The notes under the pieces are model-generated. The model had not been told where the DNA came from, made no database searches, and was given only the letters and a program-made list of their open reading frames with translations. Of a stretch of DNA of 5,881 nt, positions 1 to 5,291 are shown one piece after another. Within the stretch, counting starts at the first letter, position 1, and each line of letters begins with the position of its first letter. The stretch is from a virus (lineage: Duplodnaviria; Heunggongvirae; Uroviricota; Caudoviricetes), in the IMG/VR virus record IMGVR_UViG_2681813262_000008; one strand, given 5' to 3'. A program made the position numbers and the translations under genes.

Positions 1-1012
1 ACGTCGCCAGCTGTCCGCACAGGAGAAATCCCTGCTGGCGCATAAAGATGAGACGCTGGAGTACAAACGCCAGCTGGCTGCACTTGGCGATAAGGTCACG
101 TATCAGGAGCGCCTGAACGCGCTGGCGCAGCAGGCGGATAAATTCGCACAGCAGCAACGGGCAAAACGGGCCGCTATTGATGCGAAAAGCCGGGGGCTGA
201 CTGACCGGCAGGCAGAACGGGAAGCCACGGAACAGCGCCTGAAGGAACAGTATGGCGATAATCCTCTGGCGCTGAATAACGTCATGTCAGAGCAGAAAAA
301 GACCTGGGCGGCTGAAGACCTGCTTCGCGGGAGCTGGATGGCAGGCCTCAGGTCCGGCTGGAGCGAGTGGAAAGAGAGTGCCACGGACAGTATGTCGCAG
401 GTAAAAAGTGCAGCCACGCAGACCTTTGATGGTATTGCGCAGAATATGGCGGCGATGCTGACCGGCAGTGAGCAGAACTGGCGCAGCTTCACCCGTTCCG
501 TGCTGTCCATGATGACAGAAATTCTGCTTAAGCAGGCAATGGTGGGGATTGTCGGGAGTATTGGCAGCGCCATTGGCGGGGCTGTTGGTGGCGGCGCATC
601 AGCGTCAGGCGGTACAGCCATTCAGGCCGCTGCGGCGAAATTCCATTTTGCAACCGGAGGATTTACGGGAACCGGCGGCAAATATGAGCCAGCGGGGATT
701 GTTCACCGTGGTGAATTTGTCTTCACGAAGGAGGCAACCAGCCGGATTGGCGTGGGAAATCTCTACCGGCTGATGCGCGGCTATGCCACCGGCGGTTATG
801 TCGGTGGCACCGGAAGTCCGGCGCAAATGCGGCGTTCAGAGGGTATCAGGTTTGAGCAGAACAACAACGTGGTGATTCAGAACGACGGTACGAATGGTCT
901 GCCAGGTCCACAGATGATGAAGGCGGTGTATGACATGGCCCGCAAGGGTGCCCGTGATGAAATCCAGGCACAGATGCGCGATGGTGGTCTGTTCTCCGGA
1001 GGTGGACGATGA
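1..1012 (+). CDS. H: Tail tape measure protein, C-terminal 337 codons (5' end lies upstream of the window)
   Basis: Reading frame is open from position 2 to the TGA at 1010..1012; the track ORF 284..1012 is only its last internal Met onward. Translation (RRQLSAQEKSLLAHKDETLEY...GGLFSGGGR) matches my memory of the lambda gpH C-terminus. Gly/Ala-rich hydrophobic stretch (MVGIVGSIGSAIGGAVGGGASASGG). Stop overlaps the M start (ATGA). Confidence 0.9.
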   Translation, partial: RRQLSAQEKSLLAHKDETLEYKRQLAALGDKVTYQERLNALAQQADKFAQQQRAKRAAIDAKSRGLTDRQAEREATEQRLKEQYGDNPLALNNVMSEQKKTWAAEDLLRGSWMAGLRSGWSEWKESATDSMSQVKSAATQTFDGIAQNMAAMLTGSEQNWRSFTRSVLSMMTEILLKQAMVGIVGSIGSAIGGAVGGGASASGGTAIQAAAAKFHFATGGFTGTGGKYEPAGIVHRGEFVFTKEATSRIGVGNLYRLMRGYATGGYVGGTGSPAQMRRSEGIRFEQNNNVVIQNDGTNGLPGPQMMKAVYDMARKGARDEIQAQMRDGGLFSGGGR

Positions 1013-1338
1013 AAACCTTCCGCTGGAAAGTGAAACCCGGGATGGATGTGACATCGGCTCCTTCCGTCAGGGAGGTGCGCTTTGGTGATGGCTATTCCCA
1101 GCGTGCGCCTGCCGGGCTGAACGCTGACCTGAAAACGTACAGCGTGACGCTGTCTGTCTCCCGTGAGGAGGCCACGGCGCTGGAGTCGTTTCTGGAAGAG
1201 CACGGGGGCTGGAAAGCCTTTCTGTGGACGCCGCCTTATGAGTGGCGGCAGATAAAGGTGACCTGCGCAAAATGGTCGTCGCGGGTCAGTATGTTGCGTG
1301 TTGAGTTCAGCGCAGAGTTTAAACAGGTGGTGAACTGA
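1009..1338 (+). CDS. M: Minor tail protein M (109 aa)
   Basis: Track ORF 1009..1338; protein MKTFRWKVKPGMDV...RVEFSAEFKQVVN matches lambda gpM from memory. Start overlaps the H stop (ATGA); stop overlaps the L start (TGATG). Confidence 0.93.
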   Translation: MKTFRWKVKPGMDVTSAPSVREVRFGDGYSQRAPAGLNADLKTYSVTLSVSREEATALESFLEEHGGWKAFLWTPPYEWRQIKVTCAKWSSRVSMLRVEFSAEFKQVVN

Positions 1339-2036
1339 TGCAGGATATCCGGCAGGAAACACTGAATGAATGCACCCGTGCGGAGCAGTCGGCCAGCGTG
1401 GTGCTCTGGGAAATCGATCTGACAGAGGTCGGTGGAGAACGTTATTTTTTCTGTAATGAGCAGAACGAAAAAGGTGAGCCGGTCACCTGGCAGGGGAGGC
1501 AGTATCAGGCGTATCCCATTCAGGGGAGCGGTTTTGAACTGAATGGCAAAGGCACCAGTACGCGGCCCACGCTGGCAGTCTCTAACCTGTACGGCATGGT
1601 CACCGGTATGGTGGAAGATATGCAGAGTCTGGTCGGCGGAACGGTGGTCCGGCGTAAGGTTTACGCCCGTTTTCTGGATGCGGTGAACTTCGTCAACGGA
1701 AACAGCGACGCCGATCCGGAACAGGAGGTGATCAGCCGCTGGCGCATCGAGCAGTGCAGCGAACTGAGCGCGGTGAGTGCCTCCTTTGTACTGTCCACGC
1801 CGACGGAAACGGATGGCGCTGTTTTTCCGGGGCGTATCATGCTGGCCAACACCTGCACCTGGACCTATCGCGGCGATGAGTGCGGTTATCACGGTCCGGC
1901 GGTCGCGGATGAATATGACCAGCCAACGTCCGATATCACGAAGGATAAATGCAGCAAATGCCTGAGCGGTTGTAAGTTCCGCAATAACGTCGGCAACTTT
2001 GGCGGCTTCCTTTCCATTAACAAACTTTCGCAGTAA
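1338..2036 (+). CDS. L: Minor tail protein L (232 aa), copy 1, sequence type 1
   Basis: Track ORF 1338..2036; protein MQDIRQETLNECTRAEQSASVVLWEIDL...FGGFLSINKLSQ matches lambda gpL from memory. C-terminal cysteine cluster (C-x10-C ... C-x2-C-x3-C) is the known Fe-S binding region of gpL. Confidence 0.92.
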   Translation: MQDIRQETLNECTRAEQSASVVLWEIDLTEVGGERYFFCNEQNEKGEPVTWQGRQYQAYPIQGSGFELNGKGTSTRPTLAVSNLYGMVTGMVEDMQSLVGGTVVRRKVYARFLDAVNFVNGNSDADPEQEVISRWRIEQCSELSAVSASFVLSTPTETDGAVFPGRIMLANTCTWTYRGDECGYHGPAVADEYDQPTSDITKDKCSKCLSGCKFRNNVGNFGGFLSINKLSQ

Positions 2037-2040
2037 TCCC

Positions 2041-2193
2041 ATGACAGAGACAGAATCAGCGATTCTGGCGCACGCCCGGCGATGTGCGCCAGCGGAGTCG
2101 TGCGGCTTCGTGGTGAGAGCGCCGGAGGGGGAAAGATATTTTCCCGGCGTGAATATTTCCGGTGAGCCGGAGGATTATTTCCGGATGGCTCCG
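2041..2193 (+). pseudogene. K: 5' fragment of tail assembly protein K gene (51 codons, type 1), cut off by the N run
   Basis: ATG at 2041, 4 nt after the L stop; MTETESAILAHARRCAPAESCGFVVRAPEGERYFPGVNISGEPEDYFRMAP equals the N-terminus of the complete K ORF at 3979 apart from four residues; sequence ends at the N run 2194..2201. Confidence 0.75.
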
Positions 2194-2920: not shown

Positions 2921-3041
2921 ATGACAGAGACAGAATCAGCGATTCTGGCGCACGCCCGGCGATGTGCTCCAGCGGAGTCGTGCGGCTTCGTGGTAAGAAC
3001 GCCGGAGGGGGAAAGATATTTCCCCTGCGTGAATATCTCCG
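2921..3041 (+). pseudogene. K: 5' fragment of K gene (40 codons, type 2), cut off by single N at 3042
   Basis: MTETESAILAHARRCAPAESCGFVVRTPEGERYFPCVNIS; nucleotide-identical to 3979..4099 of the complete K gene by manual comparison. Confidence 0.75.
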
Positions 3042-3554: not shown

Positions 3555-3748
3555 ATGACAGAGACAGAATCAGCGATTCTGGCGCACGCCCGGCGATGTG
3601 CGCCAGCGGAGTCGTGCGGCTTCGTGGTGAGAGCGCCGGAGGGGGAAAGATATTTTCCCGGCGTGAATATTTCCGGTGAGCCGGAGGATTATTTCCGGAT
3701 GGCTCCGGAGGACTGGCTGCAGGCAGAGATGCAGGGTGAGATTGTGGC
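3555..3748 (+). pseudogene. K: 5' fragment of K gene (64 codons, type 1), cut off by single N at 3749
   Basis: ATG at 3555; MTETES...RMAPEDWLQAEMQGEIV. The L-K spacer here has one extra A (taaatccc versus taatccc in the other copies). Confidence 0.75.
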
Positions 3749-3749
3749 N

Positions 3750-3974
3750 GATGGCGCTGTTTTTCCGGGACGTATCATGCTGGCCAACACCTGCACCTGG
3801 ACCTATCGCGGCGATGAGTGCGGTTATCACGGTCCGGCGGTCGCGGATGAATATGACCAGCCAACGTCCGACATCACGAAGGATAAATGCAGCAAATGCC
3901 TGAGTGGCTGTAAGTTTCGCAATAACGTCGGCAACTTTGGCGGCTTCCTTTCCATTAACAAACTTTCGCAGTAA
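3750..3974 (+). pseudogene. L: 3' fragment of L (codons 159-232, type 2)
   Basis: Begins after the N at 3749 at the sequence corresponding to 1812 of copy 1 (DGAVFPGRIMLANTCTWTYRGDECGYHGPAV...), ends at TAA 3972..3974. Carries the type-2 variants (ccgggacgt, tccgacatc, ctgagtggctgtaagtttcgc) and looks identical to 2696..2916. Confidence 0.75.
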
Positions 3975-3978
3975 TCCC

Positions 3979-4722
3979 ATGACAGAGACAGAATCAGCGA
4001 TTCTGGCGCACGCCCGGCGATGTGCTCCAGCGGAGTCGTGCGGCTTCGTGGTAAGAACGCCGGAGGGGGAAAGATATTTCCCCTGCGTGAATATCTCCGG
4101 TGAGCCGGAGGCGTATTTCCGTATGTCGCCGGAAGACTGGCTGCAGGCAGAGATGCAGGGTGAGATTGTGGCACTGGTCCACAGCCACCCCGGTGGTCTG
4201 CCCTGGCTGAGTGAGGCCGACCGGCGGCTGCAGGTGCAGAGTGATTTGCCGTGGTGGCTGGTCTGCCGGGGGGCGATTCACAAGTTCCGCTGTGTGCCAC
4301 ATCTTACCGGGCGGCGCTTTGAGCACGGGGTGACGGACTGTTACACGCTGTTCCGGGATGCTTACCATCTGGCGGGGATTGAGATGCCGGATTTTCATCG
4401 TGAGGATGACTGGTGGCGTCACGGTCAGAATCTCTATCTGGATAATCTGGAGGCCACAGGGCTGTATCAGGTGCCGTTGTCAGCGGCGCAGCCGGGCGAT
4501 GTGCTGCTGTGCTGTTTTGGTTCATCGGTGCCGAATCATGCCGCCATTTACTGTGGTGACGGCGAGCTGCTGCACCATATTCCTGAACAACTGAGCAAAC
4601 GAGAGAGGTATACCGACAAATGGCAGCGACGCACACACTCCCTCTGGCGTCACCGGGCATGGCACGCATCTGCCTTTACGGGGATTTGCAACGATTTGGC
4701 CGCCGCATCGACCTTCGTGTGA
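3979..4722 (+). CDS. K: Tail assembly protein K with JAB/MPN (JAMM) metalloprotease motif and NlpC/P60 peptidase domain; long form 247 aa (canonical lambda start would be the internal ATG at 4123, 199 aa)
   Basis: In-frame ORF from ATG 3979 to TGA 4720..4722. JAMM-type motif H-S-H-P-x7-S-x2-D encoded at 4180..4221 (LVHSHPGGLPWLSEAD). NlpC/P60-like Cys in DCYTL (Cys codon 4339..4341) and downstream His residues (PNHAAIY, LLHH). GGAGG at 4107..4111 precedes the internal ATG 4123; no clear SD precedes 3979. Confidence 0.85.
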   Translation: MTETESAILAHARRCAPAESCGFVVRTPEGERYFPCVNISGEPEAYFRMSPEDWLQAEMQGEIVALVHSHPGGLPWLSEADRRLQVQSDLPWWLVCRGAIHKFRCVPHLTGRRFEHGVTDCYTLFRDAYHLAGIEMPDFHREDDWWRHGQNLYLDNLEATGLYQVPLSAAQPGDVLLCCFGSSVPNHAAIYCGDGELLHHIPEQLSKRERYTDKWQRRTHSLWRHRAWHASAFTGICNDLAAASTFV

Positions 4723-5291
4723 AAACGGGTGCCGAAGCCATCCGGGCGATGGCCACACAGCTCCCTGCGTTTCGTCAGAAGCTGAGCGACGGCTGGTATC
4801 AGGTGCGTATTGCCGGGCAGGATGTTAGCACGTCCGGATTAACGGCACAGTTACATGAGGCTCTGCCTGACGGCGCTGTGATTCATATTGTTCCCAGAGT
4901 CGCCGGGGCCAAGTCAGGTGGTGTATTCCAGATTGTCCTGGGAGCAGCCGCCATTGCCGGATCATTCTTTACCGCCGGAGCCACCCTTGCAGCATGGGGG
5001 GCTGCCATTGGTGCCGGTGGTATGACCGGCATTCTGTTTTCTCTCGGTGCCAGTATGGTGCTCGGCGGTGTGGCTCAGATGCTGGCACCGAAAGCCAGAA
5101 CTCCCCGCACACAGACAACGGATAACGGTAAGCAGAACACCTATTTCTCCTCACTGGATAACATGGTTGCCCAGGGCAATGTTATGCCTGTTCTGTATGG
5201 TGAAATGCGCGTGGGGTCACGTGTGGTATCTCAGGAGATCAGCACGGCAGACGAAGGGGACGGTGGTCAGGTTGTGGTGATTGGTCGCTGA
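4620..5291 (+). CDS. I: Tail assembly protein I (223 aa)
   Basis: Track ORF 4620..5291; MAATHTLPLASPGMARICLYGDLQRF...DGGQVVVIGR matches lambda gpI from memory. Purine-rich GAGAGAGG at 4601..4608 upstream. Overlaps the 3' end of K by 103 nt in another frame. Confidence 0.92.
   Translation: MAATHTLPLASPGMARICLYGDLQRFGRRIDLRVKTGAEAIRAMATQLPAFRQKLSDGWYQVRIAGQDVSTSGLTAQLHEALPDGAVIHIVPRVAGAKSGGVFQIVLGAAAIAGSFFTAGATLAAWGAAIGAGGMTGILFSLGASMVLGGVAQMLAPKARTPRTQTTDNGKQNTYFSSLDNMVAQGNVMPVLYGEMRVGSRVVSQEISTADEGDGGQVVVIGR

Follow-up and report, generated by a model that had tools for sequence, protein, structure and literature searches.

We found that gene K of a lambda-type prophage is very probably translated from an ATG just behind gene L, giving a 247-aa protein predicted to join a JAMM/MPN metallopeptidase domain to an NlpC/P60 peptidase domain, and that the 199-aa form of the lambda reference is in all likelihood an artefact of that record. 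The long form and its JAB + NlpC/P60 architecture are already known and are an ordinary feature of K. New here is the cause of the short annotation, which we trace to a 1-nt gap in the reference sequence and not to a biological choice of start. The outcome is therefore an annotation correction, not a discovery.

Our analysis centered on a 5,881-nt stretch of viral DNA (the window), which is ∼95% identical to lambda and keeps its L-K-I-J order, with K between L and I in the H-M-L-K-I-J module (Table 1); it also holds the start of gene J. The window consists of four overlapping pieces (lambda 12092-14278, 13413-14253, 13621-14325 and 13903-16034) that represent two alleles and are joined by N runs (2194-2201, 3042 and 3749), and it looks like a scaffold stringing together variant lambdoid prophage copies. 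Such lambda-like copies occur at a median of three per E. coli genome. We rejected a real tandem duplication as the source of the four L/K junction copies, which lie in overlapping, N-joined pieces from two alleles. The copy at 3979 is the last and the only complete L/K junction.

Table 1. Coordinates of gene K, its predicted domains and active-site residues, and neighboring features in the window
Feature	Position	Strand	Basis or remark
Tape measure gene H, C-terminus	284-1012	+	Pfam tape measure C-terminus
Gene M	1009-1338	+	Pfam Phage_min_tail
Gene L, full copy	1338-2036	+	Pfam Phage_tail_L
Partial second L-stop/K-start junction copy, allele 1	2041..2193	+	Ends at N run
Partial third junction copy, allele 2	2921..3041	+	Ends at N
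Partial fourth junction copy, allele 1	3555..3748	+	Spacer ATCCC as in lambda; ends at N
Gene L stop TAA	3972..3974	+	4 nt before K start; Pfam Phage_tail_L on full L copy
Full-length gene K, 247 codons + TGA	3979..4722	+	Tail tip assembly protein, two predicted peptidase domains
48-codon K extension	3979..4122	+	Helix 3-15, strands 21-27 and 30-36 of JAMM/MPN domain (AlphaFold model)
Predicted JAMM/MPN (Prok-JAB, PF14464) metallopeptidase domain, ~residues 1-105	3979..4293	+	Pfam, 2KKS, AlphaFold, Foldseek
E19 codon GAG, predicted JAMM catalytic Glu in P-A-E-S-C-G	4033..4035	+	Aligned to 2KKS 'PNEACG'
Internal GGAGG (4107-4111) and ATG 4123	4107..4125	+	Within JAB domain; codons P43-E44-A45 through M49
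G absent from J02459/NC_001416 (after reference 14266)	4113..4113	+	Alignment to lambda derivatives
Predicted JAMM zinc-site part H68-S69-H70-x7-S78-x2-D81	4180..4221	+	Family alignment conservation
Predicted NlpC/P60 (PF00877) papain-like cysteine peptidase domain, residues 111-224	4309..4650	+	Pfam, alignment, Foldseek
C121 codon	4339-4341	+	Predicted NlpC/P60 catalytic Cys
H187 codon	4537-4539	+	Predicted NlpC/P60 catalytic residue
H199/H200 codons	4573-4578	+	Predicted NlpC/P60 catalytic residues
Gene I, 223 aa, N-terminal Lambda_tail_I/ubiquitin-like domain	4620..5291	+	Overlaps K 3' end by 103 nt, other frame

Position and high identity to lambda K identify the gene as the lambda-type tail tip assembly protein K: lambda-type K proteins are 97-98% identical to the window protein, and residues 49-247 differ from lambda K at five positions. 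Four nucleotides (TCCC) separate the L stop from ATG 3979, the frame stays open until the TGA at 4720-4722, and the nearest in-frame stop upstream of this ATG is at position 3901. An initial reading of the sequence alone (the sequence-only reading) had placed the K start here, 4 nt past the L stop, and had taken the classical 199-aa start to be an internal ATG with the better Shine-Dalgarno sequence. The coordinates checked out, giving 247 codons. ATG 4123 is K codon 49 and aligns to the lambda RefSeq K start at 14276; GGAGG lies 11 nt upstream of it, and we found no Shine-Dalgarno sequence between the L stop and ATG 3979. The broader claim that the frame extends 48 codons upstream of the lambda start is correct for the window and incorrect for the lambda reference, in which the K frame meets a TGA seven codons upstream of 14276. 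The extension includes the peptide stretch MTETESAILAHAR...YFR. Peptides distinctive of the long start are TETESAILAHAR, CAPAESCGFVVR and YFPCVNISGEPEAYFR, and the 199-aa protein has the N-terminal sequence MSPEDWLQAEMQGEIVALVHSHPGGLPWLSEADR (beginning MSPEDWLQ).

The Pfam match to the JAMM/MPN domain requires the extension. Against the Pfam Prok-JAB profile (PF14464; cut-off 25 bits), the 247-aa protein scored 52.6 bits over residues 4-98 and matched profile positions 4-103 of 114, whereas the 199-aa form fell below the cut-off (22.9 bits) and matched positions 63-103 only. The 48-residue extension alone matched positions 3-41. The domain is thus not confined to the part downstream of residue 49, a case in which the extension would have been superfluous to it. 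The solved JAMM-like protein 2KKS (PDB) aligned over K residues 7-105, with 'PAESCG' of K pairing with 'PNEACG'.

We collected relatives by scanning 1.84 billion representatives exhaustively with HMMER, which returned 2,776 sequences. Full-length relatives (230-260 aa, 34-60% identity) aligned from K residue 4-10 onward, starting at their own residue 3-15. In an alignment of 36 sequences (identity down to 34%), C21, G22 and N38 of the extension were invariant, and P17, E19 and F47 were at least 90% conserved; downstream, H68, H70 and D81 were invariant, and S69 and S78 were at least 90% conserved. The HSHP-x7-S-x2-D motif that the sequence-only reading had located at residues 68-81 is present there (H68-S69-H70-P71, S78 and D81), and the glutamate that it expected only the extension to supply is E19, among its seven candidates, according to both 2KKS and the 36-sequence alignment. 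The complete motif, E-x(n)-H-[S/T]-H-x7-S-x2-D, is accordingly found as E19, H68, S69, H70, S78 and D81. We conclude that the extension is conserved and belongs to the JAMM fold itself, being neither a leader nor an intergenic spacer, and that the N-terminal domain of K is a predicted JAMM/MPN zinc metallopeptidase with E19, H68, H70, S78 and D81 in its active site.

Structure prediction agreed. An AlphaFold model of the 247-aa protein, built from the family alignment, had a mean pLDDT of 96 and showed residues 1-105 as an MPN domain, and a Foldseek search of the PDB with this domain returned PfJAMM1 (5LD9; 110 columns, target TM 0.63), Rpn11 and CSN5 (probability 1.00). The 199-aa form was modeled with equal confidence (pLDDT 95.7); because AlphaFold can reconstruct the local structure out of the alignment, comparing the two predictions is uninformative about the stability of half a domain. 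We rejected an assignment of K as a desampylase (NCBIfam equivalog NF041370; 29.2 bits vs. a cut-off of 130), to which it is related without being a member.

The C-terminal half of K belongs to the NlpC/P60 family, with 49.2 bits against PF00877 (cut-off 23) over the entire profile (positions 1-105 of 105). Of its catalytic residues, H187 and H200 were invariant in the 36-sequence alignment, and C121 and H199 were at least 90% conserved. Foldseek matched this domain to MepS/Spr, LytE, Acd autolysins and other NlpC/P60 enzymes. Judged from these comparisons, the 247-aa protein holds two complete predicted peptidase domains with their catalytic residues intact.

We then asked how the long ORF behaves across related phages. 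We took 87 close relatives of the K locus from viral contigs and GenBank phages, and an intact 247-codon ORF starting with Met was present in 86, the exception being the lambda reference record; an open frame kept this widely is not a matter of chance. Pooled Nei-Gojobori estimates over 76 distinct K sequences gave a dN/dS of 0.195 for codons 2-48 and 0.114 for codons 49-247 in the K frame, compared with 1.59 and 2.18 when the nucleotides of codons 2-48 were read in the other two frames. The extension has 34 variable sites, 23 of them at third codon positions. The two alleles within the window (copies 3555 and 3979) differ in codons 1-52 by six synonymous and four nonsynonymous changes (A27T, G36C, D45A and A50S), exactly as the sequence-only reading had counted them; five and three of these, respectively, fall in codons 1-48. 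The weak sign of coding constraint that it saw in this pair was borne out by the purifying selection on the 76 distinct genes (0.195 in the K frame vs. 1.6-2.2 elsewhere). The 48-codon extension is coding, and the long 247-codon ORF is a conserved unit.

The same layout recurs in more distant relatives. Using single distant proteins as queries, we gathered a further 133 viral loci. In 107 of them an ORF bearing the complete motif (E-x-C-G ... H-[S/T]-H-x7-S-x2-D) was accompanied by another ORF, 150 aa or longer, on its upstream side. The K-like ORF of nearly every one of these 107 loci starts between −8 and +12 nt from the stop of the upstream ORF, and its glutamate lies 15-21 residues from the start. 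A start near the L stop without a Shine-Dalgarno sequence is therefore normal for the K family. The missing Shine-Dalgarno sequence, together with a start 4 to 5 nt past the L stop, suggests translational coupling with L; initiation at ATG 3979 would most likely occur by termination-reinitiation coupled to L.

The absence of this ORF from the lambda reference comes down to one base. The sequence-only reading, whose interpretation is otherwise supported, missed this cause, and it also missed that databases and the literature already have the long form with its architecture. In J02459/NC_001416 the upstream ATG (14133) lies 143 nt before 14276 and is thus out of frame with it; ATG 14276 is what remains as a start, hence the 199-aa 'canonical' gpK. 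At the site itself the reference reads GGAGGC-TATTTCC, and all other aligned sequences are one base longer (GGAGGCGTATTTCC in the window and in lambda derivatives, GGAGGAG in phage 434 and GGAGGAT in the window's other allele). We compared the reference with five lambda derivatives, namely imm434 (OM418626), KT232076, PV340536, Lambda_AGU (LC730321) and DE3. Across a region of ∼1.5 kb (13,500-15,000), a G added after 14266 was the only internal difference, and all five, carrying this G, hold the 247-codon ORF. Over 1.9 kb, the same single difference separates the reference from the lambda prophage in J53, a K-12 laboratory strain. A search of 5,426 complete E. coli genomes gave 7,890 places matching this stretch, not one of them with the reference form; the best place was 99.2% identical to the reference over 131 nt, a one-base insertion.

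In our phage collection the reference form was confined to four records: J02459, its RefSeq copy, OR474059 and OR974322. The last two look reference-derived, OR474059 being an 'UNVERIFIED' record of strain lambdaS3243 and OR974322 a chicken-swab genome whose coordinates are those of lambda itself. As a separate observation, OR974322, which comes from chicken cloacal swabs taken in South Africa, shows no difference from the 1982 reference in the 1.7 kb examined (13400-15099) and lacks the G as well. This suggests that lambda control DNA was assembled with the reference as guide and that the record is no environmental isolate.

Most likely, the G was left out through a sequencing error in the 1982 record, whose source we take to be the cI857 S7 stock. 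A G/C-rich run, here GGAGGCG, is a context where gel reads drop a base. The documentation of breseq and a supplier's notes on the lambda sequence reportedly list '+G at 14,266' along with a 1-bp deletion near 138/139. Nine differences from the published sequence are common to many laboratory lambda strains (Feiss et al. 2022; PMC9119081). Genome-wide, LC730321 (48,503 bp) differed from NC_001416 at 15 places, including a 1-bp deletion at 139, the G after 14266, substitutions at 31016, 34934 and 45618, and a C added after 20835 in the side-tail-fiber (orf-401) region; no differences were seen in cI or S. These two genes are presumably the marker sites of the 1982 stock, and with no differences there we rejected LC730321 as that stock and assigned it to a different lambda lineage. 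Some of its differences may be among those that two papers mention, without listing them, as common to laboratory lambda. Our literature search found no explicit statement that lambda K has 247 aa or that position 14266 is wrong.

One point against the long form is the lack of a Shine-Dalgarno sequence at ATG 3979, compared with a GGAGG placed 11 nt ahead of ATG 4123. Both starts might be used, with a 247-aa JAMM + NlpC/P60 protein and a nested 199-aa product from ATG 4123 in which only NlpC/P60 works. Lambda has other genes with in-frame internal starts (C/Nu3 and S107/S105), and among 52 close relatives Met49 is kept in 51 and GGAGG in 48. However, codons P43-E44-x45 fully account for the Shine-Dalgarno-like bases, some sequences read CCTGAGG or GGAAG instead, and in one close relative codon 49 is CTG. 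At 34-60% identity, position 49 is mostly I, V or L (consensus Ile), which argues that there is no conserved internal start. The 11-nt spacing is also long, and the short product would hold half an MPN fold. We consider such nested isoforms unlikely, and their elaboration, in which the ratio of an L-coupled 247-aa product to a 199-aa isoform tunes processing of the gpI ubiquitin-like domain, improbable as well.

The reference could also be right about its own phage, if the 1982 stock truly lacked the G and was viable, making K as two products, an N-terminal fragment of 76 aa and a separate protein of 199 aa. Laboratory growth would then not depend on the JAMM active site, or one piece would complement the other. 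The deposited sequence does read this way, with a 76-codon ORF from 14133, and two later records (OR474059 and OR974322) agree. Laboratory lambda also has another frameshift: the stf lesion of lambda PaPa (Hendrix and Duda 1992, cited in PMC10721106) is likewise a single-base change that shortens or splits a tail gene relative to natural relatives. The stf lesion is a real strain mutation, whereas none of the independently sequenced lambda derivatives examined carries the K lesion. The G is present in imm434, KT232076, PV340536, LC730321, DE3 and the J53 prophage, and the reference form matched none of the 7,890 E. coli places. The nine shared laboratory-strain differences count against a genuine frameshift too, as do the position of the missing base within a G/C-rich run and the nature of the two agreeing records. 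We regard a real frameshift as very unlikely; the K lesion is most likely confined to the database record. The classical view, in which gpK has 199 aa and the upstream 144 nt either stay untranslated as a spacer or hold a small ORF of their own, has usage on its side. RefSeq (NP_040598), UniProt-style usage and some recent records annotate 199 aa, as do a 2020 review ('199 residues', with one peptidase domain seen; PMC7291167) and a 2025 expression screen that took accession NP_040598.1 as lambda gpK (bioRxiv 2025.07.02.662641). Against it stand purifying selection in the K frame only, catalytic-motif residues of the extension that are invariant across distant homologs, a short start that splits the Pfam domain, an ORF intact in 86 of 87 loci, and the family-wide start of K near the stop of the upstream gene. 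A short-only gene is contradicted by these comparative data, and we give it next to no credence.

The preferred reading, a single 247-aa K from ATG 3979, is already reflected in much of the annotation. PGAP calls the 744-nt gene a 'C40 family peptidase' (247 aa) in E. coli genomes, and the long form is annotated in phage 434 and lambda PV340536. In a collection of 5.8 billion proteins, most K clusters have 247 aa with PF14464 + PF00877, and the 199-aa clusters have PF00877 only. DE3 is annotated short and KT232076 at 636 nt, though both DNAs hold the full ORF. We also noted that one and the same 2022 announcement gives K as 744 nt in phage 434 (OL657226) and 600 nt in lambda imm434 (OM418626). 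The latter has an annotated RBS at 14260-14264, and its DNA holds the full 247-codon ORF, as in phage 434.

The correction matters because lambda is the reference phage and the 199-aa entry (NP_040598, AAA96551) continues to be used; the short start has been carried over into several recent lambda depositions whose own DNA holds the full ORF. Since the short form lacks the catalytic Glu and three secondary-structure elements, work on gpK function needs the 247-aa protein. The need is greatest for the long-standing proposal that gpI has its ubiquitin-like domain processed by a phage JAMM peptidase. Fixing the reference at 14266 would remove the problem of the truncated gpK.

Following that proposal, the ubiquitin-like N-terminal domain of gpI, the proposed substrate, is the probable target of the JAMM domain of K while the tip is being assembled, and K itself would be left out of the virion. 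Iyer, Burroughs and Aravind (2006, Genome Biol 7:R60; PMC1779556) described TAPK as JAB + NlpC/P60 beside a ubiquitin-like TAPI, with JAB as the proposed peptidase that frees the ubiquitin-like domain of I. A lambda-type K is expected to be required for tail assembly and absent from the virion; in published work neither mass spectrometry nor cryo-EM detected gpK there (PMC10721106, PMC12617516). In the tail tip, gpI is resolved only from residue 101 or 135 onward, and its ubiquitin-like domain is unseen (PMC10721106, PMC11101478). The unseen gpI N-terminus fits processing by K and is no proof of it.

Gene I itself has the opposite start problem to that of K. The Lambda_tail_I (ubiquitin-like) domain covers residues 14-97 of the 223-aa form (Pfam), and PV340536, KT232076 and the PGAP annotation of J53 begin the gene at a GTG overlapping the K stop (window 4719). 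The resulting 190-aa protein would lose the first 33 residues, and with them a portion of the ubiquitin-like domain.

K can be compared with known enzymes at both of its domains. The E-x(n)-H-S-H-x7-S-x2-D motif is shared with PfJAMM1 (5LD9/5LDA), the NF041370 desampylase and 2KKS. Like these archaeal and bacterial JAMM/MPN+ isopeptidases, whose targets are ubiquitin-like proteins, K has a compact MPN fold of ∼105-130 residues and an adjoining gene for a ubiquitin-like beta-grasp domain (PMC300881; PMC1779556), and Ambroggio et al. (2003; PMC300881) already placed lambda K among the JAMM proteins; unlike those enzymes, K is fused to NlpC/P60, serves in phage tail assembly and has only a putative substrate. 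E. coli MepS/Spr and B. subtilis LytE share with K the fold and the Cys-His-His catalytic residues of its C-terminal domain. They differ in that K has no annotated signal peptide, is absent from the virion and is cytoplasmic during assembly, which makes peptidoglycan an unlikely substrate and a protein a more plausible one. The closest counterpart is the TAPK of Iyer et al. (2006), which is the same gene as the window K with the same JAB + NlpC/P60 architecture; the lambda reference K (NP_040598/AAA96551, 199 aa) lacks residues 1-48, unlike the complete protein of the window.
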